DNA of 64,000 bases from a virus, in the IMG/VR virus record IMGVR_UViG_3300010373_000043, positions 7,189-71,188 of that record. One strand, 5' to 3'. The notes beneath the pieces are model-generated. The model had not been told where the DNA came from and did no database searches. It saw only the letters and a list, made by a program, of their open reading frames with translations. A program made the position numbers and the translations under genes. Numbering within the stretch: position 1 is the stretch's first letter; every line of letters begins with the position of its first letter. This document shows, one piece after another, positions 4,707 to 63,164 of this stretch.

Positions 4707-4733
4707 ATACCTCTTATAGCGAATCTCTAGTAC

Positions 4734-5395
4734 TTATTTGCCCTTTAATGCGTTTCCAATGACACAGTGCTCAGTGCACCGTTCTTCCTCACCGCAATAG
4801 ATGCAATTGCCACCCTGGCCAGCGGTTTGAACCTTCTGTAATACATGCTCCAGCTCTAGGATCCGATCTACGTTCTTGCTGTTGATTGCAACGATCGCGA
4901 GCAGATCGTCTTCGTCTTTTTGAAATTCTATTTCTATCTCGCGCTGCACGTCGCAGTAGTCTTCGAAGTAGACCTTCTTCAGACGCTTAATGATATTGTA
5001 TGCGCGGTCCCGAATGGTCATGGTAGTTCTCACTCGCCGAGTTCGCGTTTCAGGCGTTCGAGCTGCGCGCGTTTCCGCTCACGTTCCTCGGTCTTCTTCA
5101 GCTCGTCGAGCTTCGCTTCTCTAGCGCGGACCATCGGCATGGCATCTTCAGCAAGCGACAGGATGAGCGCGTGGTCCATCTTGCGCTCGGCACTGCCGAC
5201 CCCGTAGTACTCCATGGTCTTGTCCGCCTCGGTACGCGCCTGTTCCATCGTCTCAGCGTTCAGGAGAACGAGCCGCTGGCCGCACCCGATCGTGTAGTCG
5301 CATCCTTCGCCACTCTGCTTCAACCACAGGTAGAACTTCATCGGCTTTCTCCTCGCACGTTTATCGTCATTCTCATCACGGCTTATCCAATTCAC
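4734..5395 (-). CDS. Two hypothetical proteins (5030..5395, 4734..5033)
   Basis: Overlapping stop/start, coding-like composition. Confidence 0.6.
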
Positions 5396-5999
5396 CCTTA
5401 ACGTGATCGACGAGGATTTCCATCTTGTACTTAAAGCTGTCCTCGCAGTGCGGGTTGACGATCAGGTGGAAGTTCGGATGCGAATCCCACTGAGACATCG
5501 TGAGACCGTCGAGGATGCGAGCCTCTTCCGGCGTGTCCGTACGCACGGCGTCGTTCTTGTAATGCTTCTCCGCGCCGATGGCAGCCGACTGCAAGTGAAA
5601 CACAGCATCGTAGCGCTTGAGAGCGTGGTGCACGTCGGTGTGAGCGTACGAGAGGATCGTATGCCAGTCCGTGCGAGCCATGTACGCACCGTTGTCGCAG
5701 AGACCGCGATCGCAAATGATCAAGCCGCGTCGCTCGCCTTGTGTGAAGCGAATGAAGCTCTCGGCCGCATCCTCCAGCTCGATCTGCAATCGAACAATTG
5801 TCGATTGGATGATACGAATCTGAGCTGGATCGGTGAGCACGCGAGGATCGACGCCAGTGCTGATGAGTGTGCGTGCGACTTCAGGCACGACCATGCAGAG
5901 ATAGTTGCGATCTTGTGCAACTCGCGTCAGCTCGGACAGTCCGGTTGACTTGCCTCCGCACGGGCCTCCGGTGATGACGAATTTCTTGATGACGTTCAT
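5376..5999 (-). CDS. NadR/Ttd14-type (AAA_28) P-loop kinase-like protein
   Basis: FVITGGPCGGKST, VPEVAR, ICDRG..D, YDAVFHL motifs. Confidence 0.85.
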   Translation of the reverse strand: MNVIKKFVITGGPCGGKSTGLSELTRVAQDRNYLCMVVPEVARTLISTGVDPRVLTDPAQIRIIQSTIVRLQIELEDAAESFIRFTQGERRGLIICDRGLCDNGAYMARTDWHTILSYAHTDVHHALKRYDAVFHLQSAAIGAEKHYKNDAVRTDTPEEARILDGLTMSQWDSHPNFHLIVNPHCEDSFKYKMEILVDHVKGELDKP

Positions 6000-6205
6000 T
6001 GCTTCGGCCTCTTGAAGAAGGCGGTCCATTTACCGACGCCGCCTCCTCCTCCGTTCGCAGGCATAAAGACCATGGAGTATGCCTCCCAGCCTTCTTCGCC
6101 CATCTTCTCCATCTTCTCGTTCCAGCCTTTTAGGCCCTCATCGGAAGCGGTGCGGGTGAATTCGGCGTACTCCCACTTCTGGAGTATCGATTTCGCCTTC
6201 TTCAT
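5996..6205 (-). CDS. DUF4177-like small protein
   Basis: KWEY...MEKMGEEGWEA...FFKRP pattern. Confidence 0.65.
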   Translation of the reverse strand: MKKAKSILQKWEYAEFTRTASDEGLKGWNEKMEKMGEEGWEAYSMVFMPANGGGGGVGKWTAFFKRPKQ

Positions 6206-6396
6206 AGCAGCTCCCACGCTCTTTCAGCGATCAATTCGCGGATGCGAGGATGAGGACGTGCGACACCGATCGCCCAGCGGCGCACCGTGCTCGCAGCTAC
6301 TTCGAATTCGCCACGCAATACATCTACAAACTGATCAGCCTTCTTGTGGCTGACGAGTAGAAGAATCAATTGCTGGAATCCCTCTTGTGAAATCAC
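6202..6396 (-). CDS. Small HTH (XRE-like) protein
   Basis: FEVAASTVRRWAIGVARP recognition-helix pattern. Confidence 0.55.
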   Translation of the reverse strand: MISQEGFQQLILLLVSHKKADQFVDVLRGEFEVAASTVRRWAIGVARPHPRIRELIAERAWELL

Positions 6397-7481
6397 ATCG
6401 ACTCCACGATCTCGATGCAGAGCTGATTGAGCGCTGCACGATTCGGTTGCTTCGGTAGCGGCGTGGTGAGGATGAGAGCTTCGAGATTCTTCTCTTGCTG
6501 CTCTGCCCACTCCAGCAGGTAGTCGAGCGTCCAGGCTCCATTGCGAATCGCCTTCAGCTCTTCAGCATCGGGACGCTTCACGATGACACCCTCACCGCGC
6601 ATGATCTCTTGCGACATGCGCATGAGACGAACGAGGTGCATGCCGTGCTTCGTGTCGTAGCCGTACTTCTCTTCCAGCTCGTGACGAACGGCGTTGCGAG
6701 TCTTCTTCCATTCCTGGTACTGCTTCCATCGCTGGTGAGCACCGCGGTATCCACGCTCTTGCGCAAGATACTCCAGGAAGTTCTCGTCGAAGCCGAGCTT
6801 GCGGCCGGCTGCCGTCCACACGTCATTCTTCGAGTACGCAGCGATCTCTGTGATTGCGTCCTCGTACGTGCGCAGCAAGCCGATACGAAGGGCATCGTCG
6901 ATCTCGGCGAGGTCCACACGCCAAGCTTCGATCTGCTTCTGAATCTGCGACTCAGCAGCACGACGCTGCTCGACGGACAGTGCCGTGTACTCCGGCAATC
7001 CGAATTGCGTACGCGTCGGCTCCTCTTCCATCGGATTCGTGATCCAGTCGCGATGCGTGCGGATGCGCTTGAGCTGCGCCATTGCGTAGCCCGAGAATCT
7101 GTACTTCGCGTTCTGCGACAAGAACAGCTCACGTGCAGCGTGGATTTTCTCCCAGCGCTTGCTGACGTAGATCCAATCGTTGATCCAGGCAAGCTCGATA
7201 ATGTTCGGATTGCAGTCCGCTGCCAGCTTCATGAACTTGCGAAGCTCGTAGTAGCAGCAGTCGTACGGATCGAAGCCCTTGTCAGCTTGCTCGAACGTGT
7301 CGGTGAAGCCGAAGTCGTACTCCCTCGGAGCTACGCATACGCCCTTGACGTCGATGTCGCTTGTGGGCCCGTTGGTGCCGTACGCATGCGAGCCGTGCTT
7401 CATTAGCACAAGCGTGCGTCCGAAGATCCACTTCTGGTTGCCCTTGTAGGCGTTGTAGATGTCGTTCTCAGTTACGGTCAT
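6393..7481 (-). CDS. Pol-beta-family nucleotidyltransferase (RlaP/YcgL/T4 NrdC.11-like)
   Basis: GSHAYGTNGPTSDIDVKGV, CNPNIIE, YDTKHGMHLVRLMRM, LKAIRNG motifs. Confidence 0.9.
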   Translation of the reverse strand: MTVTENDIYNAYKGNQKWIFGRTLVLMKHGSHAYGTNGPTSDIDVKGVCVAPREYDFGFTDTFEQADKGFDPYDCCYYELRKFMKLAADCNPNIIELAWINDWIYVSKRWEKIHAARELFLSQNAKYRFSGYAMAQLKRIRTHRDWITNPMEEEPTRTQFGLPEYTALSVEQRRAAESQIQKQIEAWRVDLAEIDDALRIGLLRTYEDAITEIAAYSKNDVWTAAGRKLGFDENFLEYLAQERGYRGAHQRWKQYQEWKKTRNAVRHELEEKYGYDTKHGMHLVRLMRMSQEIMRGEGVIVKRPDAEELKAIRNGAWTLDYLLEWAEQQEKNLEALILTTPLPKQPNRAALNQLCIEIVESM

Positions 7482-8204
7482 AGCTCTTCACTAAAGAAGA
7501 GGCGGTACTTGCCGCCTTCGATTCTCCACACAGCCACGAGCCGTGCGTTAGGATACTTCGCCATCAGCGAATCGAGTGATCGCGTGAACATCTCGTCGCT
7601 GTTCGTGTGGTCTTCAAACACGAGGTTGAAGTTTTTGAACTTCGGGTGTTCGTCTGCGCGCTTCATAGCTCCCTCGTGAGGAAGATCCAGAATCGGCCAG
7701 AGCTACCAGTCACGACATTGGCGATCTGCCAATTCTTCCACTTCGCCAGCTCTTCCGTCAGAGATTGAGCGTCCTCTTTGTTCGACGTAGTGCTGCCGAA
7801 TTCGATGTAGAGCACCTTGTGCTCGTAGCGCTCTCTGTCGCTGGCCAGTTTCATTAGTTCGCTCCGGTGCCGTTGCCCAGTGCGTTGTCGATCGTGCGCT
7901 TGCCTGCGATGAGGAAGTCGATATGGTCCTGAACCATCTTGACCATATCGTCATAGCCTCCGACTTCTTCGAAGACTTCGCGTGTCGTGACGCAGTGCTC
8001 GATCAGCCCCTCGACCCCACCTTGGAGCATGAGGTAGTTGATCTTGCCCAGCTCCTTCGACTTGGAGTCGATGTCCTTCGCCTTGTCGAGGATGCCGGTG
8101 AACTTCGTCTCCCACTTGGTGAAGTTGTCTCGGAAGCGCTGCTTCTCCTCGGGTGTGACACCGTCGCGGAGGAGCAATTCCTTCATCTTCTCTTTAATGG
8201 TCAT
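7478..8204 (-). CDS. Three small hypothetical proteins (7854..8204, 7663..7854, 7478..7666)
   Basis: Coupled start/stop overlaps; the two smaller ones resemble the DUF4177 pattern. Confidence 0.6.
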
Positions 8205-8214
8205 GCCATAGCCC

Positions 8215-8277
8215 TTATAGCGGATCTTTCACAACCCACGATACGGCCAGCAGAACCCCTAGTACCAAGTACACCAT
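8215..8277 (-). CDS. 20-aa hydrophobic peptide MVYLVLGVLLAVSWVVKDPL
   Basis: Lies between two CGCTATAAG elements, AGAGG SD, stop codon inside the downstream element. Confidence 0.55.
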   Translation of the reverse strand: MVYLVLGVLLAVSWVVKDPL

Positions 8278-8346
8278 GGTCGCCTCTGTGCCTCTTATAG
8301 CGGACGTAATCTAAGACCTACATCCCCAATCTGGAGACTTTGTACT

Positions 8347-8730
8347 ATGGCGATCAACGATCGACCGTTCAGCGTCCGCATTCAAGGCGACGCAACCGGT
8401 GAAACATGGGTAGGTGACTTCCGCGCGAAGGTTGCACTCACTCGTAGAGATATCCTTACTAAGGACCGCATCCGTCGCGAGATGCTGGGCCCCGTCGGCG
8501 AGCCGGATGAGCACGCCCGTCTGCTTGCGATTGCGTATTCAGAGCTGAAGGTTCGTATCACCGATGCACCAAAGTGGTTCATCGAAAGTGATTGCGGACT
8601 CGATCTCGAAGATGAAACACCGATGGCCGCTGTCTACAAGGAAGCGATGAAGGTGGAGAACGACACAGTCGAAGCCAAGATCAAGGAAGCTGCAACCAAG
8701 GCTTCTGATCTGAAGAAGGAAGCTGAGTAA
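8347..8730 (+). CDS. Putative tail assembly chaperone
   Basis: Position upstream of tape measure, size, GGAG SD. Confidence 0.6.
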   Translation: MAINDRPFSVRIQGDATGETWVGDFRAKVALTRRDILTKDRIRREMLGPVGEPDEHARLLAIAYSELKVRITDAPKWFIESDCGLDLEDETPMAAVYKEAMKVENDTVEAKIKEAATKASDLKKEAE

Positions 8731-8981
8731 TGCCGGCCGGTGATCCGCCGCTGTTCTACGGCTACAACTTCGTGTTCGGCGATGATTACTGCTCGTGCAA
8801 GCGTTGTCCGTGTTGCGGTAAGCTGGTACCTGTACAGCTTGCTCCGTATATTCCGAATCCTTATATCCCGGTAATTCCTTCGCCGATTTGGATTCAACCA
8901 TATCAGCCGTACTTCGAGCCATACACTGTCACAGTCACGCTCGATAGCACACTACCTAACGGCGATCCTGAAAAGAAGTAA
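8730..8981 (+). CDS. Cys/Pro-rich hypothetical protein
   Basis: TAATG overlap; CSCKRCPCCG plus PY-rich segment. Confidence 0.45.
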   Translation: MPAGDPPLFYGYNFVFGDDYCSCKRCPCCGKLVPVQLAPYIPNPYIPVIPSPIWIQPYQPYFEPYTVTVTLDSTLPNGDPEKK

Positions 8982-8989
8982 GGTGTGTC

Positions 8990-9523
8990 ATGTCCAAGAA
9001 GAAGGACATGAATATCATCGAGGCCACACGCCTAATCGCGTTGTGGAACGTTACTCGTGCTTCTGATAAGCAAGATCCTGAGTACATCTATCGCGTCATG
9101 GCACGCTGGTACTCAGAGAAGTTCGGTTACAAGCTCGACGAGGTCGACGATATTCCTATCGAGACTGTAGCGATGCACTACTACGAAGCGCACTACGAGG
9201 ACATGACTCCCGAAGAGCGCAACGAAGAGATCAAGCGTCTCACTCAGTCAGATGAAGAAAAGATCGCAGCCGATAAGGCCGATGACGACTTCCTCAAGCA
9301 AGCGATCAAGGAAGCCGAAGACGCTTCGAAGCTTCGTGCCGCCGCTTCTGCTCTCGCAAGAGCAACTGAAGAGCTACAGCAGGTTGCGATTCCGAAAAAG
9401 GTCGAAGGACTAAAGAAGGAATTGGCTCAGCCTGATATCAACATGACGTTCATTTCTGAGGAAGAGATGGAGCGCATGGGTGAATGGGACATCTTGGGCC
9501 CGACACCTTCGTCGGGAAAATAA
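8990..9523 (+). CDS. Pre-tape-measure chaperone-like protein
   Basis: Directly upstream of tape measure; charged, helical. Confidence 0.55.
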   Translation: MSKKKDMNIIEATRLIALWNVTRASDKQDPEYIYRVMARWYSEKFGYKLDEVDDIPIETVAMHYYEAHYEDMTPEERNEEIKRLTQSDEEKIAADKADDDFLKQAIKEAEDASKLRAAASALARATEELQQVAIPKKVEGLKKELAQPDINMTFISEEEMERMGEWDILGPTPSSGK

Positions 9524-9554
9524 CAACCGCAATCTTATGATTTAAGGTCATCCC

Positions 9555-11960
9555 ATGGCAGGCGAGAATAAGAACCTCGAAATCGGCGTCGTAGTCAACG
9601 AAGGCCAGATGAGCAAGTTCAACACCGCGATTCGCGATGCGACTCGTGAGGTGTCGAAGCTTACGGCTGAGTTGAATCGTGCTGCGTCCGCTTTCAAGGG
9701 CTTCTTGTCTGGAGCCCAGATGTCGGGCAGTGGCCAAGGTTTCCGTCCAGGCTCAGGCTTCGCTCGCGCTCCTCTCTCGCAAGGTGGCATCACTCAGCCT
9801 GCTGTAGCGATTGCATCAGCGATCAAGGCGACTGCGAAGGAGTCGACTGACGCTCTCCGCAGTATGGATCAGGGCGTTCGCACGACATCGAGCAAGATGT
9901 CAAGCAGCCTCGACATGTTCGATCAGGCACTCGCAAAGGTCGAGCGTCGCTTCAAGAGTATCAAGGCTCTTGGTAGCAGTGGCGCTTTGTTCCCTGGTGG
10001 TGGTTCATCGAATGGTGGATTGATTCCTGCGAATGCGAATATCGTTAATCGTGGTGGTATCGATTTCATCGGCCCTTCGAAGGGCGGTGGCGGCGGTGGC
10101 ATTTTCGCAAAGCTGATGCGAGGAGAAGATGTGGGCGACATTGGATCGATGATCCGCAAGGTCGTTCCCTACGCACTAGCAATGCGCGGTGCTCAGATGA
10201 TCGCTAGCGAGATCGCAGCACAGCCGAACGATTTCATGAATCAGGCTGGACGCCAGGGCACTGCATTCGGTGGTCTCGCTGTGAGCATGATGCAGGGTCG
10301 TGACTTCGTCACGCCATACGCTTTGCGTCGCATTGCTGAAGAAGGTAAGGCAAACAATCCTCGCATGACCTACGCTGAGCGCAATAGAATGCTCGGCAAT
10401 CAGCTCAGCTCGCATTGGTGGTACAACGCTATGCCGGAATTCGGCAAGCGTTACTTCAGCACGATGGTAAAGCAAGGTCTCACTCAAGGTGATGGCGCAG
10501 GTAACGCCGCCACTGATCTTATGGGCAATTCGAGTCTGTCGAATAGCTTTATCTCTGCGATCAAGGCAGCTCCTAGTTTGCTCACTCAAGGACCGGGCGG
10601 TGTGTTCCGTGCTCTTGAAGGCTCAGACGTAGATGAGAATCTACGCAAGCTCGGCTATGCGCAGCAATACGCATCAGCTCACCAAGCTGAAGTAGGATTC
10701 CGTGCACGTCAGGCTTACGGCTCAACGTGGGAATCGATGATTCCTGTTATGCGTCAGCTCGGCACGAGTGATCCTTGGACAACGCTTGCTAAGCTTCGTA
10801 TGCGTGGCTTGGGTGGTGGCGATCTTGGTGCTGGCATTGGTCAGGTCGCTCCTCTCGCTGGTTGGGCAAACCGCGGCCTCGGCTACACAGCAATGAACGC
10901 CACGATTGGTCACGTTGATAACGTCGGCCAGCTTCTCGGTGCTGGCATGCAGTCAGGCATCGGTGCCGGTGGTGCACGCAACCTCGCTGGCTTCCTCGCT
11001 GGTAACGGTACAGATCCATATGCACAAGGTGCAATCGCCAAGGCTCTAGCAGCTCAAGCGCTGAACGGCGGTCCTGTTGTCGATCCGACTGGCTCTCTCG
11101 GTGCTCTTAATGCGTTCAATGGTCGCGGCCAAGGTGCTGCTGAGCAAGTGCGCATTGCAAACGCTCAGGCTGGTGGTCTCGGTGCTATCAACAGCGATCT
11201 GTTTGGTGGTGGTATCGATAACCTTCAAAAGGCTCGCAACTACGCTAACGCGATTGATGTGATGCCAAACAACTTGTTTGGCTCGAACTATCTCGCCGAG
11301 CACTTCAACTTCGGCATGTACGCAGCGGCGAAGCGTGGTGGCAAGGGCTATCACGTTCCCGGCGTGATGGCGGCTCGTGGTATCTCGCAGAAGGACATCA
11401 TCGGCTATGGCGATGCGTCCGTAAACAGCATGTTCCGCAACGTCATGCTCGGTGGCACTGACACGCCAATGGGCCAGCTCGCTAGCTCGATGCTGCATGG
11501 CGGTTACGGATCGAACATCGGCAAGTACATCAAGGACCACCGCAAGGATAAGGGCTTTGACGTAAACGGTGTGCTCACAAACTTCGGTGCAATCCTCGCA
11601 TCTGAAGGTTATGGTGGTGGCAACGATCAGACCGCTGAAGGTATCGCTCGCGATCTAGCCGGTATCGAGAATCCTCTTCTTCGCAAGGGGCACTTCCGTG
11701 ATGCTTCTGCTGGCACTAGAGCGCGATTGACTGCTGGTGCAGTAGGTAGTCGCGATCTTGAGACTGCTGGTGCAATTAAGGGCATCACTCCTGAAGAAGC
11801 GAAGAACACTCCTGGTCGTGGCGCAGATGTTGTGGGCGATATCGCTGGCAACATTGGTTACAGCTCGGACGTTGTCGCTGACAAGCTCCTCGGCCTTGCA
11901 GATGTTATCGATCAAGTCACTCAGCGTATCGCTGGTGCTGGTGGCGGCTACGTCAAGTAA
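9555..11960 (+). CDS. Tail tape measure protein
   Basis: 801 aa, Ala/Gly-rich helical, between chaperones and baseplate hub; CAATCTT at 9530. Confidence 0.75.
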   Translation: MAGENKNLEIGVVVNEGQMSKFNTAIRDATREVSKLTAELNRAASAFKGFLSGAQMSGSGQGFRPGSGFARAPLSQGGITQPAVAIASAIKATAKESTDALRSMDQGVRTTSSKMSSSLDMFDQALAKVERRFKSIKALGSSGALFPGGGSSNGGLIPANANIVNRGGIDFIGPSKGGGGGGIFAKLMRGEDVGDIGSMIRKVVPYALAMRGAQMIASEIAAQPNDFMNQAGRQGTAFGGLAVSMMQGRDFVTPYALRRIAEEGKANNPRMTYAERNRMLGNQLSSHWWYNAMPEFGKRYFSTMVKQGLTQGDGAGNAATDLMGNSSLSNSFISAIKAAPSLLTQGPGGVFRALEGSDVDENLRKLGYAQQYASAHQAEVGFRARQAYGSTWESMIPVMRQLGTSDPWTTLAKLRMRGLGGGDLGAGIGQVAPLAGWANRGLGYTAMNATIGHVDNVGQLLGAGMQSGIGAGGARNLAGFLAGNGTDPYAQGAIAKALAAQALNGGPVVDPTGSLGALNAFNGRGQGAAEQVRIANAQAGGLGAINSDLFGGGIDNLQKARNYANAIDVMPNNLFGSNYLAEHFNFGMYAAAKRGGKGYHVPGVMAARGISQKDIIGYGDASVNSMFRNVMLGGTDTPMGQLASSMLHGGYGSNIGKYIKDHRKDKGFDVNGVLTNFGAILASEGYGGGNDQTAEGIARDLAGIENPLLRKGHFRDASAGTRARLTAGAVGSRDLETAGAIKGITPEEAKNTPGRGADVVGDIAGNIGYSSDVVADKLLGLADVIDQVTQRIAGAGGGYVK

Positions 11961-13900
11961 TGGCTACGCAAGCTCCTACATACGATCTGCTCACTGAATT
12001 CGGTGATGGTGCGGAAGCGTCGAAGTCAACCTCGACGAGTCCGTATTGGGTGATTTGCGTATTCCCTCTTGGATTGCCGCTATCATTTTCTCGTTCGTCG
12101 ATGGCTTCTGTTGAGCAGTTGCCTTCACATGGAGCACAGCTTCGCGGTCCGCGTCTAATCATCACTGGTGATTGCAAGCAGCTCACCATCACGAATTCGA
12201 AGGCGAGCCATCTCAAGTCTCTGCAAGCTACATTGCTCCAGACATCGACCAATTATCTCGTCGAGATTCTGCCGGGTGATTGGGTCATGGCGTGGATCGT
12301 CAACTACGAAGACAAAGCCGTTGGCAACAACGGCATCGTGTCTCGTCTGCGCTCTGGCGATCCTTGCAACAATTTCGACGATGGATTGAAGTTTGTTGGT
12401 CGCGTCGACAACATCGAGAAGATGATCGATCGCGGTCCTGACGGGCAGCTCACTTCGAAGTACGCTCTCTCGGCTAACGCATTCAAGGAATTTGATTCTT
12501 CGATATTCTACGAATACAACTTCGCTGAGTTTGCGAAGAACCAAGTCGGTACGTGGCTCGCGAAGATCGGTCTCAACATCAACGAGCTATTTCGCTCTAC
12601 AAAGAATGGTGGCATCCAAGACAATGTCCATGTCTTGATTCCATCTCTGTTCGAGATCCTATTCGGCTCGGGCATCAGCCCCAACATCAATCCTGGCGGC
12701 ACGAGACTGCAAGCTGCAACAGGAGCGCTCGGTCCTTCGTCAACGACGAACAACAAGGAAGCTCCGTTCGCGTACCTTGTGCCCGAGGAGATCGGTGACG
12801 CTCTCAACAAGGAATCGCGTTCAAAGACCGGTGGCGTGCTTGCGTTTGCAGATATCGTCGAGCTTGTATTTGGAGTGCAGCAGTACTCGAATACGAATTC
12901 AGGAATCTCTTCGTACACGATGTTTCTGCCTGACACGCAAGATAGCGGTGGTACTAGCAACAACCCTCACCATTACACAGGCACGCCTCTGCTGGGAGCA
13001 TTCATGCCTCTCATGCCGACATTCACGAACACTCCGTTCTGGAATGTGCTTGAGCAATTCCTCAATGCAACCGTCAATGAGATGTACACGTGTCTGCGTG
13101 TGAACAAGGACGGCTATATCGTTCCACAGCTCATTGTTCGTCAGATCCCGTTCACCACGGACATATTCGCCGAGCAGATGGCGAGTGGATTGCCCTCAAA
13201 TCAGAGTGGGCCTCTCAACCAAAATCAGAACGTCTCGATTCCGGTCACACGCTTTCTTAGCTTGCCTCGATGGAAGATGTCGCCGGTCTTGCTCTCTAAG
13301 GTGAGAGTTGGGCGTTCCGATGCAACACGCGTCAACTTCGTTCATGTCTACGGACAGAACAGCTATAACACAGGTATTCCGATTGTCCGTCAGCTCGTGG
13401 TGAATCCGCCCGTGCGTGATGATATTGATATCCAGAGATCCGGTCTGCGACCATACATCCAAACTGTCGCCTGCGACGCTGTCAATCAAGTGGGTAAGAC
13501 TCCTGGTGTGTGGATGGACTTGGTCGCAGACCGTCTCATTGGATCACAATTCACGCTAAACGGTACCATGCAGAGCACGGGCATTTCGGCTCCTATTTGC
13601 GAAGGTGATAACCTCGAATTTGACGGCGTTGTCTATCACATCGAAGGCGTTGTGCATCAGTGTGCTATAGACGCGAACGGCAATCGCACATTCCAAACAC
13701 AGCTTTCTTTGTCGAACGGTATGCGCACAGCTCCCGAGACCGTTGCTGACGTATCAGCTTCTAACACCGAAGCGGCCATCTATCCTGGTGTGGCTCAGGA
13801 CGATCTCACTCAGTACGATCCAGGCATCACTGACGATCACACGACGCCAAATGAGCAAGTCAACGATGGTCTGCGTTCAGGAAAGCCGGGTAAGGTCTAA
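11960..13900 (+). CDS. Baseplate hub/tail protein
   Basis: Follows tape measure; C-terminal LNGT...GDNL...YHIEGV.H hub-like pattern. Confidence 0.65.
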   Translation: MATQAPTYDLLTEFGDGAEASKSTSTSPYWVICVFPLGLPLSFSRSSMASVEQLPSHGAQLRGPRLIITGDCKQLTITNSKASHLKSLQATLLQTSTNYLVEILPGDWVMAWIVNYEDKAVGNNGIVSRLRSGDPCNNFDDGLKFVGRVDNIEKMIDRGPDGQLTSKYALSANAFKEFDSSIFYEYNFAEFAKNQVGTWLAKIGLNINELFRSTKNGGIQDNVHVLIPSLFEILFGSGISPNINPGGTRLQAATGALGPSSTTNNKEAPFAYLVPEEIGDALNKESRSKTGGVLAFADIVELVFGVQQYSNTNSGISSYTMFLPDTQDSGGTSNNPHHYTGTPLLGAFMPLMPTFTNTPFWNVLEQFLNATVNEMYTCLRVNKDGYIVPQLIVRQIPFTTDIFAEQMASGLPSNQSGPLNQNQNVSIPVTRFLSLPRWKMSPVLLSKVRVGRSDATRVNFVHVYGQNSYNTGIPIVRQLVVNPPVRDDIDIQRSGLRPYIQTVACDAVNQVGKTPGVWMDLVADRLIGSQFTLNGTMQSTGISAPICEGDNLEFDGVVYHIEGVVHQCAIDANGNRTFQTQLSLSNGMRTAPETVADVSASNTEAAIYPGVAQDDLTQYDPGITDDHTTPNEQVNDGLRSGKPGKV

Positions 13901-14838
13901 TGCCAGTAATTCCTAGCCATCTACGTATAGGCAAGACTCAGCGCTTCTCTGATGGAGGAGTGTTCGATGATATCCAACTTCACTTTGGTGAAGTACAGGA
14001 GGTCATCTACGCAAATGATGAACGCTCACGCTCGAAGCAATTCACTGAATACTCAGTCTATGTGCAGTACAGAGATCCCGACACCAAGGCTGGTGTGGGA
14101 AAGATCTATGACAACTGCATCATCTCGAACGTGTTCGGTGGCGTTGCTGACAACGTCTCTTACAACCTACGTGGCGACAAGAGCGTATCGAAGCCTTCAA
14201 CCAATCGCCTCGGCCTCGGCTCGAAGGTGCTGTTGGCTTGCATCAATGGCGAGACCCAGTTTCCAGTAATTATCGGCGCGATTGGCGATCCACAAGACAA
14301 GTCGCAGAACGGCGATGCAGATCAGAAGCTCGGGCATTACTTCCGCTTCACATTTAACGGCATCGTAGTACTCATTAACAACGATGGCGAAGTGAGCATC
14401 ACGCGTAATGGCCCTACGAAGATCGATGGTTCGTTGCAGGATGGTGTCGACAAGAAGACCGTCGGTGCATCTATCACGCTGAACAAAGATGGCAAGATCA
14501 TCGTCAAAGAGAATCAAGCTCTCGAAATCGGCGATGCTACCGATCACTTCATCCTCGGCGACACATACCGCAACGCCGAGCATGATATGAATCAGTCTCT
14601 TCAGACTGGCCTACAGAACGTAGCTCAGAAGCTCACGATCGCTAGCACTCAGCTCGCAGCAGCCGGTGCTTCAATGGCTACGCCCATCACTGGCGCAGTG
14701 GCGGCAGCTCCTAACGTCACCTCGGCGTCGGTGCAGCTTGCTTTGGCTGTGGCCGAGCTGAACAAGATGGCTACGGCTATCGCCAAGATGGAAGCTCAGG
14801 CTAAGAAGTATCTGTCGTCTAAGAACAAGACTGACTAA
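13900..14838 (+). CDS. Baseplate spike (gpV/gp45-like)
   Basis: OB-like N-terminus GSKVLLACINGE..PVIIG followed by beta-repeat region. Confidence 0.65.
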   Translation: MPVIPSHLRIGKTQRFSDGGVFDDIQLHFGEVQEVIYANDERSRSKQFTEYSVYVQYRDPDTKAGVGKIYDNCIISNVFGGVADNVSYNLRGDKSVSKPSTNRLGLGSKVLLACINGETQFPVIIGAIGDPQDKSQNGDADQKLGHYFRFTFNGIVVLINNDGEVSITRNGPTKIDGSLQDGVDKKTVGASITLNKDGKIIVKENQALEIGDATDHFILGDTYRNAEHDMNQSLQTGLQNVAQKLTIASTQLAAAGASMATPITGAVAAAPNVTSASVQLALAVAELNKMATAIAKMEAQAKKYLSSKNKTD

Positions 14839-14861
14839 CGCAATCTTTATAGTCACAAGCC

Positions 14862-17339
14862 ATGGCGACGGTTAAGAACAACGCATCGATCAATGCGGAT
14901 GCTATCTCAGCGAAGGACAATAGCTCAGTAGAGCAGAACGATCCGTTCTGGACTCATGCTGACATCGATACGCTTCGTTGGAATCAGCAATTCGCTTATC
15001 AGTTGCTCCTCGTGAAGCGTGAAAACGGTCAGTACATCATTGACCAGACTGCTTCGAAGTGGCAGTTCACCTTGCCGATTGGCCCATCAGGCGTCTCGTA
15101 TTCGATGCCATTCGCGATCAATGGAGAAGTGAAGCTCGACGGCTTCAGCGAGCAGCACGGCGGTGCTCCTGTTCGAGCTATCACCATGAGCGGCACGACC
15201 GGAGTGTTGCCTCTCAAGGGCTCAGCTCCATCACGCTCGACCGCTGGATTCTTCTCAGGTATCTTTGCCGGCACTGTAGCCGCAGCTCAGCGTACAGCTC
15301 AATCGGCAGTCTCGCTCGCTACCGGCATATCAGCTTCTCCGAATATCGTCACTGATGACGATTTCCAAGACACGACCATTTCTAAGACTACTGGATATTA
15401 CCAATTCAGAAAGCTTCAAGAGTTTTTTGAGAACTATGCTGCGTTCAAGAAGCTGCAAACGTCTCAGGACTACGTCCTCGCTTTGGCTATCTGGAAGGAT
15501 CAGGCTGTCTATCTCGTCACTCCGACGCAGTTCAACGTAACCCGTTCTGCCGATTCTCCGTACGAGTACCCATTCACGCTTGCATTCAAGTCGTGGAAGC
15601 GCGTGAACCTGCAACAGTCAGGACCACCCGCTAATTCATTCACACCTGTTACTCGCCAGCCTTCTGCTCTTGGCAACATGCTCGCATCGCTGATGAAGGC
15701 ACGTCAGGTACTCGAAGGTGTTCGCGACACGATCCAAGCTGTGGGTGGTGATGTCGATACATTCTTGTTCACGCCGATCCGTGAGACCGTGTTGTGGGTG
15801 AAGGATCTTCTTGGTGTGCCGATCGCATTTGCCGATTTGCCCGTGCAGATCATCAGCGACGCAAAGCAAGCAATCATCACTGCCGTTGGCGTGCAGTACG
15901 CAGCCCAGGGCGTGCCCGCTGCATTCTTTAATGCTCAGCAATCGACGCAGGACTTGTTTGCTCAGATTGGCCAGATCGCTTCGCAGACAGATCAAGCAAC
16001 AACTCAGGGCGGTCTCTCGCAGGACGTGAATGTCATCGACGGCTCGACGACGACTGACTACGCACAAAAGATTTTCGAGAACCCCGAGATGTACTATGAC
16101 TTCTTTAGTCGTATTAACGTCGCATCAGTATCTCTATCTCCATTCGTCATTCGCTCTATCGTGAATGAACGTGATCGTGTTCGTCAGATCACTCGCCTCG
16201 ACTACGAACAGCGTCGTGATCAATTCGTACAGGCTATGAGCGACTACGCTGACTTCGTTGGTGCTGGCAACGCTACGTATGCAGCTACGTATGGGCGTGC
16301 AGCACCTACTACGACTCGCACACCGTCGACGCAAGACTTCCAAGTCATCTTCGCGATGAATCGCGTGATCATGGAGCTGAATCGTCTCGCTGCATCTGGT
16401 GAAACCAACCAATTCCAGGTCGACTCGATCAACTATGTTGCCGGTCTTGCATCGAAGTCTGGCATCGCATTCACGAAGCCTCAATCGAAGTTCGCTGTGC
16501 CGTTCCCGTATGGAATGACACTCGAAGAGCTTGCACAGCGCTACTTGCTATCGCCCGATCGTTGGATCGAGATTGCAACGCTCAATGGCCTGCGCGCTCC
16601 GTACGTAGATGAAGTGGGCTTCGATCTGCCGCTTCTCACGAATGGTCACGACAACCAAGTCACCATCGGCGATGCAACGAATCTATTCATCGGCCAGCAA
16701 GTGTGGCTCAGCTCGACCACGACAGCACGTACATCGCGTCGCATCGTGAAGCTCGAAACGCTAATGTCGGGCCAGACGATCCTCACGCTCGATGGCGATC
16801 CAGACCTAGCACGCTTCTCTACGCTTGCTCAGGCATCGCTGCATGCGTTCTTGCCTGACACTGTCAACTCGATGATGCAAATCTACATCCCGTCTCCTGA
16901 TGAGCCGGCTGATGAGGATTATCGTCTCAAGTCGATTCCAGGTGTGAACTACTTCGATCCGCTTGTCGAGGCGGCTGGCGTAGACATCTTGTTGACAGAG
17001 AGCTTGGATCTTGCGATCACACCTGATGGTGATTGTCGTCTTGCCGTTGGTCTCGCGAACGTCGTACAAACCGCACGCATTCGCTTGAGCACGCCGCAGG
17101 GCACGCTTATTCGTCATCCGAGCTTTGGTCTGGCAATCAAGCCGGGCGAGTCCACAGCAGATGTGGATGCACAGACGCTACTGCGTAGCTGCCAGGATCT
17201 CTTTGCAGACGATCCTACGTTCACTGGTGTTGAATCAGCTTCGATTGCGAAGCAGGGTCCGTCAGTGTTGATCCAATTGCAGGTTGGTATTCGTGGCGTG
17301 AGCCAGAACATTCCTGTTACGTTCAAGCTACAGGGCTAA
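14862..17339 (+). CDS. Baseplate protein with LysM-like and C-terminal gp25/gpW-like domains
   Basis: TLEELAQRYL..PDRWIEIATLNGL (LysM); DGD.RLAVG.AN.VQ...RLSTPQGTL.RHPSFG (gp25-like). Confidence 0.75.
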   Translation: MATVKNNASINADAISAKDNSSVEQNDPFWTHADIDTLRWNQQFAYQLLLVKRENGQYIIDQTASKWQFTLPIGPSGVSYSMPFAINGEVKLDGFSEQHGGAPVRAITMSGTTGVLPLKGSAPSRSTAGFFSGIFAGTVAAAQRTAQSAVSLATGISASPNIVTDDDFQDTTISKTTGYYQFRKLQEFFENYAAFKKLQTSQDYVLALAIWKDQAVYLVTPTQFNVTRSADSPYEYPFTLAFKSWKRVNLQQSGPPANSFTPVTRQPSALGNMLASLMKARQVLEGVRDTIQAVGGDVDTFLFTPIRETVLWVKDLLGVPIAFADLPVQIISDAKQAIITAVGVQYAAQGVPAAFFNAQQSTQDLFAQIGQIASQTDQATTQGGLSQDVNVIDGSTTTDYAQKIFENPEMYYDFFSRINVASVSLSPFVIRSIVNERDRVRQITRLDYEQRRDQFVQAMSDYADFVGAGNATYAATYGRAAPTTTRTPSTQDFQVIFAMNRVIMELNRLAASGETNQFQVDSINYVAGLASKSGIAFTKPQSKFAVPFPYGMTLEELAQRYLLSPDRWIEIATLNGLRAPYVDEVGFDLPLLTNGHDNQVTIGDATNLFIGQQVWLSSTTTARTSRRIVKLETLMSGQTILTLDGDPDLARFSTLAQASLHAFLPDTVNSMMQIYIPSPDEPADEDYRLKSIPGVNYFDPLVEAAGVDILLTESLDLAITPDGDCRLAVGLANVVQTARIRLSTPQGTLIRHPSFGLAIKPGESTADVDAQTLLRSCQDLFADDPTFTGVESASIAKQGPSVLIQLQVGIRGVSQNIPVTFKLQG

Positions 17340-17354
17340 CGATTCTGGTAGTTC

Positions 17355-19399: not shown

Positions 19400-19403
19400 T
19401 TGC

Positions 19404-21326: not shown

Positions 21327-21327
21327 G

Positions 21328-50385: not shown

Positions 50386-50496
50386 CGGTGCTCTCCTCAG
50401 CGGTTTGACAGAAGCGAGCACGCTCACTGATGGTGAGCCCACCCGCTGCGCAAACTCTATGAACTTCCGCCCTCTCACATGCCTCTTATAGCGAAA

Positions 50497-52686: not shown

Positions 52687-52719
52687 GATTTTCGTCCTTG
52701 TGTGACCCTTATAGCGGAA

Positions 52720-54029: not shown

Positions 54030-54146
54030 CTACTTTCTGGCGAGCTTGATCGCGCACCAGAGCAGCACATACCGAATGGCATGCACTGCGGGTTCAAGAT
54101 CGGGATTGCCTCTGACAGCCGCTTCGACGTAATCCAGGGCACTCAT
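54030..54146 (-). CDS. 38-aa peptide MSALDYVEAAVRGNPDLEPAVHAIRYVLLWCAIKLARK (missing from ORF track)
   Basis: ATG exactly 6 nt after a CGCTATAAG element; TAG 8 nt before the cca start. Confidence 0.6.
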   Translation of the reverse strand: MSALDYVEAAVRGNPDLEPAVHAIRYVLLWCAIKLARK

Positions 54147-54164
54147 GTGCCCCTTATAGCGAAA

Positions 54165-54554: not shown

Positions 54555-54573
54555 TTCCGTCCTCCTGTTTCCC

Positions 54574-55173
54574 TTATAGCGAACGAAACTGAGGCATGCA
54601 GTACTTCTCGTCGAGTGCCTTCGTGTTCTTCGACGAGTAACGCACCACCTTCAGTGCGTCCTGCGGCTTCACGATCACTTCGCTCTGCGTCCGCACGTTC
54701 CAGCAGAACTGCTCGCCGTCGATGTGCGGGTGCATGTTCGCCGCTTCCGAGAGGAACGTGCTGAGCATTCCGCGGCGGGCCCACTCCGCATCAAACAACA
54801 CGTCGTCGACCTTCGGCACAACACTCGCGATGTAGCCCTCGACGCTCGGGCGAATCTGCTTCACGTATCCGCTCATGATGCTCTTCGTGTCCGCGAACCA
54901 CTCCGCGACGCCGTAGTCGCGCGAGAAACTGACGAAGCTCAGACGAGGATCGGGCGCGAGCTTGCCGTTCACCACTTCCGTCGGCTCGACGAGCACGCCA
55001 CGCCACAGCGGCTCCAGCGCGACGGGATACAGACGATTGAGCACGCCTGCAAACTCGTAGATCTCCGACTGATACTTCTCCAGCAAGCCGTCCGCTTCCT
55101 GCATGCGACCGACGACGGCGTAGAGCAGCCAGTTGACGTAGTAGTTCATCTTTTGGAGCGGGCTCTTCTCCAC
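54574..55173 (-). CDS. Putative ADP-ribosyltransferase-fold protein
   Basis: LWRG...FVSFS.D..VAEWFA...QSEVIV = R-S-E order. Confidence 0.55.
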   Translation of the reverse strand: MEKSPLQKMNYYVNWLLYAVVGRMQEADGLLEKYQSEIYEFAGVLNRLYPVALEPLWRGVLVEPTEVVNGKLAPDPRLSFVSFSRDYGVAEWFADTKSIMSGYVKQIRPSVEGYIASVVPKVDDVLFDAEWARRGMLSTFLSEAANMHPHIDGEQFCWNVRTQSEVIVKPQDALKVVRYSSKNTKALDEKYCMPQFRSL

Positions 55174-56959: not shown

Positions 56960-57057
56960 CAAAAATCGACATAGCCTCGTACGATTTTCGTCATAGGGCG
57001 TAACCTCCTGAAACCCTTCAGAAATGAGATTCGCTATAAGGGCCACAGGAGGCTCCA

Positions 57058-59480: not shown

Positions 59481-59489
59481 TCATAGCCC

Positions 59490-60137
59490 TTATAGCGAAA
59501 CGACCTTGATGCGCTTTCTGCCGAGATTGGCGAGGGCGTCTGCAATCTCGTTTCCCTCGTGCCCGGCGTGTCCTTCGATGTGGTTGATCGTAATGACTGC
59601 ACCGCGAGCTGTGCGCTCGGCGAGGTCGAGCTTGATCGCCTCGGCAACTTCTTTGTTATCGATCTGCGTCTGGTTCCATGGCTTCGTCACCGAGCCGATG
59701 GCGTACTCTGAGTCGCTGTAGATGTTGATGTACGTGCTCATGTGCGGCACCGACTGCAATGCACGCCAGATCGCTCGTAGCTCGGCCAGATTGTTCGTGG
59801 CGTTGCCGATGTTCTCGGCGATGTAGAGAGGTCTGTGCCCATTCCGGTAAACAGCTACGCCGATCCCGGACGGCTTGTCCTTCGTGGTGCCGCTGCCGTC
59901 GGTGTAGGCGTAGACTGTTGCATCACGGTCGACGTAATCGACGAATACTCGATGAATGTCAGCCGGCGTGTACGACCGGTAGATCATCATACGATTGTCG
60001 ACGATGAATGCCCAGGGCTGCATGAAGAGAGCGGCTGGCAGGTTGCGCTGAGTCAGCTCGTGATTGAGCCAAACCAACGTGTCCCTCTTCCAGCCATTCT
60101 CGACGGCGAGGCGAGCTTGAACGCGATCGATTCCCAT
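59490..60137 (-). CDS. rnhA: Ribonuclease HI
   Basis: YTDGS, TNN.AEL.AI, YSDSEY, HIEGH.G..GNE.AD.LA; ATG 6 nt after element. Confidence 0.92.
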   Translation of the reverse strand: MGIDRVQARLAVENGWKRDTLVWLNHELTQRNLPAALFMQPWAFIVDNRMMIYRSYTPADIHRVFVDYVDRDATVYAYTDGSGTTKDKPSGIGVAVYRNGHRPLYIAENIGNATNNLAELRAIWRALQSVPHMSTYINIYSDSEYAIGSVTKPWNQTQIDNKEVAEAIKLDLAERTARGAVITINHIEGHAGHEGNEIADALANLGRKRIKVVSL

Positions 60138-60159
60138 GTACCGCTTATAGCGGATCGGG

Positions 60160-61026: not shown

Positions 61027-61111
61027 GGCAGTCTCCTGTTCGCTTTTTGGGCAGATCTCTGATCTGCGTTCATTGCCCTTATAGCGAATGTTTTGAGACT
61101 ACCTTTTGCCG

Positions 61112-61743: not shown

Positions 61744-62157
61744 TTACCTATTTCGGTAGCGCTCCAGGATCCGTATGGCGTGCTTCTCGGCGTCTTCCTC
61801 GGAATAGTCGAGAGTCATGACGCGGAAGGCTCCTGTAGCAATCTGCGAAGCGTGGCGAAGCTCGTGCGCAGCGACGAGGACGACTTCCTCCTCGAACGAG
61901 CGCAATTCGACTTCTGGAGTGTGCGTGGTGTGGCGTGTCGTGTAAGGATACTTACACTTCTGAGAAAGCGACAGCTTGACGAGGATCGGCTCGCCGGCTC
62001 GCTCGCGTCCCGTCCATCCCTGCGTTACCTTGCCGCTTTCCTTTCGGTCAGCGACGTACAAGGTTGTGGGATAATTGATGTTGTACTGGTCCGCTACCCA
62101 CTTGAGAAGAGGTAAAACGGAATCGTCGGGACGCCTCGACTCGTTAAAGGTCTTCAC
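61744..62157 (-). CDS. HExxH zincin-like protein
   Basis: VAAHELRHASQ ... E.DAE. Confidence 0.65.
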   Translation of the reverse strand: MKTFNESRRPDDSVLPLLKWVADQYNINYPTTLYVADRKESGKVTQGWTGRERAGEPILVKLSLSQKCKYPYTTRHTTHTPEVELRSFEEEVVLVAAHELRHASQIATGAFRVMTLDYSEEDAEKHAIRILERYRNR

Positions 62158-62178
62158 GTCCCTCTTGTAGCGAATCTT

Positions 62179-62652
62179 CTAAGTTTTCCAGGTAACTCTT
62201 CGGATTAACTTACCTATAGTTTCCTTGCAAACTCCATATTCAGCGGCTAAATGCTCTTGACTTACATCGCCCGATGCATATCGCTGTCTGATCACATCGG
62301 CGATTTGGTGGTTGAGTTTGCGAGCGCCGCTGACCTTGGCCGCATGACGCGGACCTCTGGACTGACGAGATTTGTTGACCATATCGTCTACATTCTCTTG
62401 ACTCGTACCGAGAAACAGATGGTCTGGATTGACGCAAGATCGAATGTCGCAACGATGGAGCACTTGAAGTGCTTTGTCCTGAGGTACGCGGTTTGCGATT
62501 CCATACGAAAATCGGTGGGCCGATACGAGGATTCCATTGGCCCAAAATAGGCCATATCCAGAATTATTCTTAGCGGCAGTCCACAACCAGCAGCCTGCTG
62601 GCGAATACTGAGCGCGATCTACTTTACTCCAAAATCGCGACTCAGTATCCAT
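62179..62652 (-). CDS. HNH homing endonuclease with C-terminal HTH
   Basis: FWSKVD..GCWLWT, VLHRCD..CVNPDHLFLGT; close paralogue of 26631..27089. Confidence 0.92.
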   Translation of the reverse strand: MDTESRFWSKVDRAQYSPAGCWLWTAAKNNSGYGLFWANGILVSAHRFSYGIANRVPQDKALQVLHRCDIRSCVNPDHLFLGTSQENVDDMVNKSRQSRGPRHAAKVSGARKLNHQIADVIRQRYASGDVSQEHLAAEYGVCKETIGKLIRRVTWKT

Positions 62653-62657
62653 TGCGA

Positions 62658-63116
62658 TTAACGAACGGGAACGCCCGGCATGGTGAAGCCGGTCTTGGTC
62701 GACGCCTGCACGGCCGGAGTCGGCACGTTGACGGTCGTCTGACCATCGAGCTGATCGGCGAGGGCGCGGATCTGCTTCACGAGACGCGGAACGCGGCGAG
62801 CGTACGAGCGCTTCGTGTCGTCGGCGGTCGTGGTGAGGTCGATGACCGCTTGCTGCAAGCTCGCCGGCAACTGCGTGACGGTGAGGCCCAGCGTGAGAGC
62901 GAGCACGACGTTCGGATCGGTCTCGTCGACGACGACGCGCGGAGTGAGGCCGGCTGCGTTCACGAGGTAGCCGGTGATGTCACCGGACGTGCCGTTGCGG
63001 TACAGGCTGATGCCCTGATTGCCGAAGAACGGCTTGGCTTCGCCGCGCTCGATTGCGTTGGCGAGATTGCGCGCCGTGAAGGCGAGCAAGGTTTGCTTCT
63101 GAGTACGATTCATCAT
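62658..63116 (-). CDS. Hypothetical protein, paralogue of 22578..23135
   Basis: Own element and AT-rich leader; shared motifs. Confidence 0.7.
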   Translation of the reverse strand: MMNRTQKQTLLAFTARNLANAIERGEAKPFFGNQGISLYRNGTSGDITGYLVNAAGLTPRVVVDETDPNVVLALTLGLTVTQLPASLQQAVIDLTTTADDTKRSYARRVPRLVKQIRALADQLDGQTTVNVPTPAVQASTKTGFTMPGVPVR

Positions 63117-63164
63117 TGTTTGCTCCGAATAAAATAAAGGATAGACGTAGCTCTTATAGCGAAT

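Follow-up and report, generated by a model that had tools for sequence, protein, structure and literature searches.

What does the nine-base sequence CGCTATAAG do in a phage genome where it stands at one gene junction after another, in many cases with a start codon at a fixed distance behind it? The question is raised by a window of 64,000 nucleotides (bases 7189-71188 of the 71,188-base virus contig IMGVR_UViG_3300010373_000043 in IMG/VR; CheckV completeness, 43%; G+C content, 52-59%). Judged by its sequence, the contig is from an uncultivated soil phage related to Myxococcus phage Mx1, and the DNA runs that contain contig sequence originate from soil and rhizosphere; two of them, X1 and X2, contain 99% and 97% of the sampled words, respectively. 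A first-pass annotation of the window had proposed that the sequence is a promoter without a -35 element and that about half of the genes served by it start at the first transcribed base. Reading frame, coding potential, two N-termini, three related sequences, and terminators directly followed by the motif all speak for this proposal. The motif is likely to act as a -35-less promoter producing leaderless mRNAs.

Positions are numbered here with the hexamer TATAAG at -12 to -7, and +1 is the seventh base after the hexamer. The window holds 22 exact copies of CGCTATAAG (21 on the - strand and one on the + strand), against 0.22 expected from shuffled sequences, in which the maximum is two; the whole contig holds 26. 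A position weight matrix (PWM) over positions -20 to +1 adds three copies with one mismatch in the window, CGCTAAAAG, TCGATATAAG, and CGCTACAAG, which score 22-27 bits, the next match in the contig reaching 12.2 bits. The total comes to 25 sites in the window, where 24 had been counted before, and 29 in the contig; the abundance of the motif stands and the earlier count is slightly low. Another regular-expression hit, at 40214, has two mismatches, lies within a gene, and was dropped as spurious.

Alignment of the 26 exact copies reveals a conserved stretch from -20 to +1, AGATYCGC-TATAAG-rGnnA-Y-R. The pyrimidine at -1 and the purine at +1, already recognized in the first-pass annotation as an initiator, are present in the 26 exact copies and in all three variants (29/29). 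G at -5 (25 of 26 exact copies) and A at -2 (24 of 26) had not been listed there. As in a -10 element, T stands at -12 and A at -11 in every exact copy and in 33 of 33 sites of a related genome, G022, described below. At -7, where sigma-70 promoters have T, G is found instead in 26/26 exact copies, 3/3 variants, and 30/33 sites of G022. The earlier claim that no -35 element is conserved agrees with the alignment, in which each position from -52 to -21 carries less than 0.4 bit of information in the 26 exact copies; the best match to TTGACA at a spacing of 16-19 bases averages 2.15 of six, below the 2.61 obtained at random positions. The TG of an extended -10 element is not present at -15/-14, which are occupied by C and G.

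The placement of the motif can be read directly from the DNA. As had been claimed, all sites lie at gene junctions and point in the direction of the next gene; this holds for all 29 in the contig, and none falls within a called gene. The tail and baseplate blocks (8347-17339 and 27154-45616) contain no copy. An upstream open frame ends at a TAG at -21 in eight sites, and in about eight the TAA of TATAAG closes a same-strand open frame of at least 55 codons, which in some but not all cases is a called gene, so that the motif overlaps the 3' end of the preceding gene. Upstream of the window, at about 1700-5000 of the contig, there are four further copies on the + strand, three with ATG or GTG at +1, and several of the four stand directly behind tRNA-like 3' ends (GGTTCGATTCC).

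The distance from the motif to the start codon is fixed at about half of the sites. ATG or GTG occupies exactly +1 at 14 of the 29 contig sites and 11 of the 25 window sites, and all 11 copies listed before as having such a codon on the seventh base do carry it. With a background of 0.032, the binomial P is about 1e-13, in a test that took in 30 regular-expression hits including the later-dropped 40214. No other offset from -6 to +24 has such codons in more than five sites, save -2, where nine non-coding hits arise from the motif's own A-T-G. Thirteen of the 14 ATG or GTG codons at +1 open reading frames (ORFs) of 72-474 amino acids (aa), and the summed log-odds of codons 2-16 amount to +17.9 in frame, compared with -115 and -97 in the other two frames. 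The remaining 14 window sites comprise five with leaders of 2-4 bases, seven with a Shine-Dalgarno sequence (SD) at or just after +1, and two with leaders of 30 and 45 bases; for the remaining 15 contig sites the corresponding numbers are five, eight, and two. At the sites with an SD at or just after +1, the start codon lies 10-15 bases in.

Two of the +1 starts can be compared with the N-termini of homologous proteins. In the AAA ATPase, which has no alternative in-frame start within 150 bases, the conserved (K/R)PFW is preceded by one or two residues, as in seven of eight homologues (59-68% identity); the eighth (41% identity) has six residues before it. In the RNase H, residue 2 of the query is aligned to residues 3-6 of the target in 20 of the best 50 library matches, which indicates that the 72-residue N-terminal part is real and that the protein starts at the +1 ATG. 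As far as sequence comparison goes, the N-termini of the homologues confirm the +1 start for both proteins. For 11 other +1 starts the evidence consists of reading frame and codon score, and the last, that of the peptide deformylase, does not agree with the N-terminus expected for the protein.

Phages related to the contig have been found by protein rather than DNA comparison. Megablast of the contig DNA against GenBank phages gave no match, and an 801-aa protein gave none by tblastn in GenBank phages or IMG/VR; relatives of this protein at 55% and 49% identity are present on Logan contigs. The closest homologues of the AAA ATPase and of the 801-aa protein are encoded on contigs of 176,889, 62,332, and 44,612 bases. 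The extended motif has one chance copy in IMG/VR, and its leaderless form has none there. In addition to the PWM scan of the contig, a motif search in relatives, both proposed with the first-pass annotation, revealed the same layout in three sequences. The first, G001, is a 30,249-base IMG/VR contig (61% G+C) reached through the AAA ATPase (47% identity); it has nine GATTCGC-TATxxx sites, three with ATG at +1 and two with an SD at +1. The second, L011, is a 2.2-kb JGI contig (41% G+C) near a homologue of the 801-aa protein; in its one copy, TTTCGCTATAAG, the ATG begins one base after +1. The third, G022, is a complete genome of 169,280 bases (65% G+C) to which 16 ORFs of this contig match at 26-59% identity. 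GATYYGCTA occurs there in 34 copies, against none in the control, and its 33 GAT(T/C)CGCTA sites, which lack a -35 element, have the form GATTCGC-TATnnG; C stands at -1 in 24 of them. ATG or GTG is at +1 in 17 of the 33, and others open with AGGAGG or GGAGG at +1. The region of about 30-56 kb, seat of most tail and baseplate matches in G022, has no motif site.

Two sites in these relatives, G001:18793 and G022:136658, lie directly behind hairpins (-25 and -26 kcal/mol, respectively) with T-runs, and at the latter the motif is followed by an ATG at +1 and no SD. The motif-served genes of G000, G001, and G022 are not homologous (67 ORFs, no cross match at 1e-3). The ten bases from -19 to -10 are conserved in phages whose G+C content is 41, 55, 61, and 65%.

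The nearest cultured relative is Mx1 (OR576727.2), the best GenBank match of the AAA ATPase. Thirteen ORFs of the contig match Mx1 at 29-54% identity, the structural genes are in the same order, and the G+C content is alike (55.5%). The Mx1 genome contains no GCTATAAG; instead, about 14 sites read TTGAC-N10-12-GATC(C/T)GC-TAnnnT, the same core but with a -35 element present and T at -7. The announcement of the Mx1 genome describes no promoters (PMC10720576). No description of promoters or leaderless messages in Mx1-like phages was found in the literature (supplements and subscription journals not covered), and a literature search for the nine-mer CGCTATAAG returned primer matches only, among the matches listed.

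These features would be explained by a promoter of the type used by bacterial multisubunit RNA polymerases (RNAPs), with a recognition surface from -20 to +1 composed of AGATYCGC, a -10-like TATAAG, which takes the form TATnnG in the clade as a whole, a discriminator containing G at -5, and the A-Y-R start point. We infer that transcription starts on the seventh base after the hexamer, because the A-Y-R point is constant whether a start codon or an SD follows, because the motif stands at block heads and behind terminators, because the TATA core is AT-rich with a G two bases after it, and because relatives share the layout. The invariant T at -12 and A at -11, this G, and the Y-R pair are consistent with initiation of the sigma-70 type. 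Since about half of the sites have the A or G of a start codon at +1, messages from these sites would be leaderless and translated from a 5'-terminal start codon; at most of the other sites, an SD or a leader of 2-4 bases would come first. In 17300-27300 there is no excess of TTGACA/TATAAT-type sigma-70 promoters (2 versus 4.9 expected) or of terminators (9 versus 7.6 expected), and no terminator lies between genes, so that the small non-structural genes would receive a start of their own plus read-through from upstream. The sites at block heads (8287/8207, 27089, and 57047) stand where a promoter is needed and thus support the promoter reading. No same-strand gene lies upstream of 27089, and a read-through message therefore cannot serve the HNH endonuclease gene.

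The only RNA run with part of the window, the metatranscriptome X8 (5% of sampled words), was compared with window positions 8201-28200 and consists of few contigs (8803-8962, 22904-23134, and 27149-27487, plus a conserved 35-base piece at 21938-21972), with no usable transcript starts or ends; it speaks neither for nor against a start site. Several observations weigh against the explanation given above. To our knowledge, G at -7 departs from every housekeeping -10 consensus, so the analogy with sigma-70 promoters is incomplete. The TAAGRGG that follows the TA resembles the 5' part of an SD; its duplex with an anti-SD tail is predicted at -3 to -7.6 kcal/mol, compared with about -9 to -12 for clear SDs in this contig. 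Where an upstream frame ends at the TAA, seven bases before the start codon (about eight sites), coupled translation is possible, and the leaderless route would not be exclusive. Codons 2-16 score negative at four of the 14 +1 sites, and the fourteenth +1 ORF, which precedes the CCA-adding enzyme, is just 38 aa long. For the deformylase, codons 2-16 have a score of -11.5, residue 34 is the first of the Pfam domain, and a GAGGAG SD precedes an ATG at +93; this SD-led ATG is the likelier start, and the +1 GTG probably does not serve as the main one. The 11 starts listed in the first-pass annotation are thus upheld by homologues for the AAA ATPase and RNase H and called into question for the deformylase and the 38-aa ORF. 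Finally, no sigma factor or RNAP gene has been found in the contig, which covers 43% of the genome.

Contigs of many other organisms, from three runs, also contain the 35-base piece at 21938-21972.

Since upstream frames end within the motif, at the TAA of TATAAG in about eight sites and at the TAG at -21 in eight, it might instead be an element of RNA: a junction between cistrons that promotes translation of the following one, through the SD-like UAAGG/GAGG or by termination and reinitiation at a TAA seven bases before the ATG, or a processing-nuclease site that creates 5' ends. The lack of terminators between genes and the partial complementarity to an anti-SD tail agree with such an element, as does the apparent use of TAAGG 4-7 bases before the ATG by some structural genes. 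We consider it quite improbable, since the distance from motif to start varies (0, 2-4, 10-15, 30, and 45 bases), with a true SD inserted after +1 in the longer cases, and what stays constant is the A-Y-R point, whichever of ATG or SD follows. Sites without an upstream cistron, at 27089, at 57047, and behind tRNA genes, are equally hard to reconcile with it, as are the two sites directly behind terminators in G001 and G022. Moreover, an AT-rich TATAA in a genome of 55% G+C, with a G two bases on, is suited to DNA melting and to contacts with sigma. A promoter for a single-subunit, T7-like phage RNAP would also act on DNA: CGCTATA is similar to the CACTATA core, transcription would start right after TATA, and an eight-base leader, AGRGGNAY, would precede the ATG. 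With some 22 contiguous bases and a TATA close to the 3' end, the block does resemble T7/SP6-type promoters, but the conservation of A at -2, Y at -1, and R at +1, and the start codons or SDs exactly there, would be left unexplained, and this idea is hardly credible. An archaeal TATA box was rejected, as its position about 26 bases before the start would place the start within ORFs, downstream of SDs.

If the motif is a promoter, as we hold likely, the host primary sigma holoenzyme might read it unaided, in a host lineage that tolerates -10-only promoters and leaderless messages, and nothing about it would be phage specific. In Actinobacteria and Deinococcus-Thermus, it is a standard arrangement for a -10 motif to lie 6-8 bases ahead of ORFs (PMC6028130, PMC12340547). 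The sister motif of Mx1, GATC(C/T)GC-TAnnnT, with its TTGAC -35 element and T at -7, looks like a host promoter. When infection begins, small genes of the early type depend on a promoter readable by the host enzyme, and G022 has just three TTGAC-N17-19-TAnnnT in 169 kb. This explanation is nevertheless unlikely. T at -7 is among the best-kept positions of primary-sigma promoters, whereas the motif has G in 29/29 sites here and in 30/33 of G022, with neither a -35 element nor TG at -15/-14. The constancy of the block from -19 to -10 across 41-65% G+C is hard to ascribe to several different host sigmas, and 26 identical nine-mers are less degenerate than host-read phage promoters usually are.

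G at -7, the absence of a -35 element, and the retention of the signal in related phages of 41-65% G+C argue for a factor determined by the phage, whether its own sigma or one that modifies the host holoenzyme; whether such a factor sets the specificity seems to us evenly balanced. A candidate is known from relatives. In Mx1 a "putative RNA polymerase sigma factor" (WNM70309.1) adjoins a helicase, and the features annotated at 1-9 kb of that genome (n = 10) include this sigma factor and no RNAP; G022 carries the same helicase-sigma pair. A search with PF00940 (single-subunit RNAP) gave no match in G000, G001, and G002, but none in the control genomes either. The Mx1-type sigma family has 369 matches, many of which lie on contigs 160-182 kb long, and 41 IMG/VR loci carry the sigma gene. 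The profile of the family aligns with solved SigA chains over regions 2-3 (E = 5e-8), as for a member of the sigma-70 family, and Pfam sigma region 2 is weakly matched by 12 of 14 family members. The motif does not follow this gene closely: exact CGCTATAAG has two copies at most in each of 29 sigma-bearing IMG/VR records, and among 18 such records GATYYGCTA exceeds the control only in G022 and Mx1.

A second motif, GCAATCTT, is enriched and strand biased in at least six sigma-bearing genomes (G007, G010, G014, G016, G022, and Mx1), as well as in this contig and G001. All six copies in the window are on the + strand, upstream of + strand genes that are mostly structural or large (2.3 copies expected by count). 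At 221 and 45002 of the window, an ATG stands on the seventh base after AATCTT; a start codon is found at this distance in 12 of 38 CAATCTT sites in G022, 5 of 32 in Mx1, and 3 of 10 in this contig. GCAATCTT is a candidate late promoter class that the sigma of the clade may read. Since the sigma gene tracks GCAATCTT across genomes better than CGCTATAAG, the latter may need another phage factor or a modified host enzyme; that the Mx1-type sigma itself reads CGCTATAAG is rather doubtful. Both classes also occur in tandem, GATTCGC-TATAxx being followed within 0-6 bases by CAATCT(T) at G001:8712-8731, G001:11240-11259, and G022:70165-70183 (- strand), an arrangement that is expected for genes under promoters of two temporal classes. 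In Mx1, a third motif, GATCAAC-N3-GTA, has an ATG at offset 22-23 in 10 of 29 GATCAAC sites; these ATGs open ORFs of 65-171 aa without an SD and may represent another leaderless class (examples in Table 1).

A joint reading of these results is tentative, possible but on the whole not probable. A widespread clade of Mx1-like phages of about 170 kb would use -35-less promoter classes of its own, GATTCGC-TATnnG in front of accessory or early-type genes and CCG-CAATCTT in front of structural ones; in both classes, a third to half of the genes served would have the start codon at the seventh base. At least one class would be read by the clade's divergent sigma-70-family factor, and TATnnG by a factor whose -7 pocket takes G. 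Leaderless initiation would then be the phage's main mode of translation in a host group, probably Myxococcota, in which it is thought to be rare, perhaps helped by the phage's own bL12-like protein and deformylase.

Table 1. Sites of the promoter-like motif in the window, followed by sites of other recurring sequences (window coordinates unless Mx1 is named).
Element	Position	Strand	+1	Start codon and leader	Gene or remark
CGCTATAAG	4713-4721	-	4706	GTG at +1; leaderless (predicted)	AAA ATPase, 3282-4706, 474 aa
CGCTATAAG	8214-8222	-	8207	ATG 8204, 3-base leader	116-aa ORF
CGCTATAAG	8294-8302	-	8287	AGAGG SD, ATG 10 bases in	20-aa ORF; head of - block
CGCTAAAAG	19701-19709	-	19694	ATG 19691, 3-base leader	95-aa ORF; one mismatch, 27.0 bits
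CGCTATAAG	21679-21687	-	21672	ATG 21669, 3-base leader	113-aa ORF
CGCTATAAG	22251-22259	-	22244	AGGAGG at +1, ATG 22232	106-aa product, L7/L12 C-terminal match
CGCTATAAG	23154-23162	-	23147	ATG 23135 with SD	185-aa ORF
TCGATATAAG	23518-23526	-	23511	ATG 23507, 4-base leader	113-aa ORF, 23166-23507; one mismatch, 22.3 bits
CGCTATAAG	24160-24168	-	24153	ATG at +1; leaderless (predicted)	156-aa ORF
CGCTATAAG	25335-25343	-	25328	GTG at +1; leaderless (predicted)	72-aa ORF
CGCTATAAG	26107-26115	-	26100	ATG at +1; leaderless (predicted)	117-aa ORF
CGCTATAAG	26374-26382	-	26367	ATG at +1; leaderless (predicted)	82-aa ORF
CGCTATAAG	26630-26638	-	26623	ATG at +1; leaderless (predicted)	78-aa ORF
CGCTATAAG	27096-27104	-	27089	GTG at +1	HNH endonuclease, 152 aa; head of - block 17570-27089
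CGCTATAAG	47840-47848	-	47833	GAGGAG at +1, ATG 47821	TPM-domain protein, 289 aa
CGCTATAAG	50485-50493	-	50478	GTG at +1, in frame; doubtful start	peptide deformylase, 49870-50478
CGCTATAAG	52708-52716	-	52701	ATG 52686 with SD	229-aa ORF
CGCTATAAG	54153-54161	-	54146	ATG at +1	38-aa ORF; CCA-adding enzyme next, SD-led ATG 125 bases in
CGCTATAAG	54573-54581	-	54566	AGGAGG at +1, ATG 54554	63-aa ORF
CGCTATAAG	57032-57040	+	57047	AGGAGG at +1, ATG 11 bases in	sole + copy in window; head of small + block
CGCTATAAG	59489-59497	-	59482	ATG 59480, 2-base leader	93-aa ORF
CGCTATAAG	60144-60152	-	60137	ATG at +1; leaderless (predicted)	RNase H, 215 aa
CGCTATAAG	61078-61086	-	61071	ATG 61026 with SD, 45-base leader	288-aa ORF
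CGCTACAAG	62164-62172	-	62157	GTG at +1; leaderless (predicted)	137-aa ORF; one mismatch, 24.3 bits
CGCTATAAG	63153-63161	-	63146	ATG 63116, 30-base leader	152-aa ORF
GCAATCTT	207-214	+			
GCAATCTT	9529-9536	+			
GCAATCTT	14840-14847	+			
GCAATCTT	27109-27116	+			
GCAATCTT	38480-38487	+			
GCAATCTT	42094-42101	+			
CAATCTT	44989	+			
CAATCTT	41172				
TAAGGT or AATCCC before ATG	9526-9554				structural gene
TAAGGT or AATCCC before ATG	13885-13899				structural gene
TAAGGT or AATCCC before ATG	8975-8989				structural gene
TAAGGT or AATCCC before ATG	32780-32799				structural gene
TAAGGT or AATCCC before ATG	38490-38507				structural gene
GATCAAC-N3-GTA	Mx1 42971	+			
GATCAAC-N3-GTA	Mx1 50897	+			
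GATCAAC-N3-GTA	Mx1 62374	+			
GATCAAC-N3-GTA	Mx1 128517	-			
GATCAAC-N3-GTA	Mx1 85285	-			
GATCAAC-N3-GTA	Mx1 84522	-			
GATCAAC-N3-GTA	Mx1 70218	-			

The tail and baseplate genes (baseplate J/wedge, a Kelch-repeat protein, and a DUF4082 protein) make up the + strand blocks named above, and the - strand blocks consist of many small ORFs and non-structural genes. The enzymes of the - blocks include the AAA ATPase, RlaP, ClpP, the CCA-adding enzyme, Tpt1, peptide deformylase, RNase H, dUTPase, and NUDIX; a TPM-domain protein, an M15 endolysin, and the protein with the L7/L12 C-terminal match are encoded there too. Two tRNA-Pro genes lie at 10-160 of the window. Several structural genes have no GGAGG SD; they show TAAGGT 4-7 bases 5' of the ATG, or a recurring AATCCC directly before it.

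Some individual sites have features of their own. Between the tandem copies at the head of the first - block, an SD-led mini-ORF (8215-8277, - strand) encodes a hydrophobic peptide of 20 residues and stops at the TAA within the hexamer of the second copy. The copies at 24145-24170 and 54138-54163 (- strand) share 26 identical bases that extend into the first codons, and both products begin with MSAL. In this pair, GGGCAC-ATGA-GTGCCC forms a perfect palindrome centred on the start codon, which could fold over the AUG in a read-through message and not in a message begun at +1. The C-terminal match of the L7/L12-like protein (21912-22232, - strand) scores 30 bits and spans residues 76-99. Like the peptide deformylase, this protein has a role in translation, and both may be relevant to leaderless initiation.

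If the motif does act as proposed, the Mx1-like phages would join phiYS40 as the second well-defined lineage of phages in which leaderless messages account for the translation of many genes; one member, Mx1, is in culture on Myxococcus xanthus, and metagenomic relatives number in the hundreds. A specificity of the sigma or holoenzyme unseen in housekeeping promoters would be indicated by the invariant G at -7, and a compact orthogonal promoter would be on offer. For annotation, the motif would fix start codons that gene callers set by SD, and it predicts many short ORFs that are otherwise missed. What appears to be new is the signal with G at -7, its spread in the Mx1-like clade, and a cultured relative for tests, together with two motif classes, in Mx1 perhaps three, that have a start codon at a fixed distance. 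What was already known is the occurrence of -10 boxes beside ORFs (PMC12340547, PMC6028130) and the leaderless programme of phiYS40, through which SD-independent translation in a phage, as envisaged in the first-pass annotation, had been described (PMC3594737).

phiYS40 is a Thermus myovirus with a size of about 150 kb; most of its middle and late messages lack a leader (PMC3594737). The GenBank phage searches with contig DNA and the 801-aa protein found no sequence kinship to it, and there are no Thermus phages among 25 of the 50 records matched by the AAA ATPase. Its promoters, in work attributed to Sevostyanova et al. in 2007, reportedly lack a -35 element and are served by no phage sigma, being read by the host sigma A through a TATAAT-like -10 element. 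In contrast, the signal described here has a hexamer with G as its last base and a conserved upstream block of eight bases, and a sigma gene is present in relatives. The layout is also similar to that of the "group C" genomes of GeneMarkS-2, in which a Pribnow-type box lies 6-8 bases before the start, first genes are leaderless, and others are SD-led (PMC12340547, PMC6028130). There the box is a degenerate TANNNT read by the host primary sigma, whereas here a near-invariant 22-base signal with G at -7 is confined to one phage clade.

Promoters without a -35 element that are read by phage sigmas were already known: T4 gp55 (TATAAATA) and phiEco32 gp36 are phage sigmas that use a single -10-region element in many copies. 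The T4 late promoters serve structural genes, whereas the present motif is absent from the structural blocks; its hexamer TATAAG is followed by RG and does not match the TATAAATA octamer, and no gp55-like gene is seen in the contig. T4-type phages also have promoter-stem-loop cassettes (PeSLs) on either side of variable small ORFs, in which a near-identical promoter is repeated before each small accessory ORF. A repeated promoter before small ORFs that are not homologous, with 26 identical bases in two of the copies, is a similar arrangement, although no stem-loop or terminator accompanies the copies here. In Mx1, both the GATC(C/T)GC-TA core and GCAATCTT are shared with the contig, and the difference lies in the TTGAC -35 element and the T that ends the Mx1 form.

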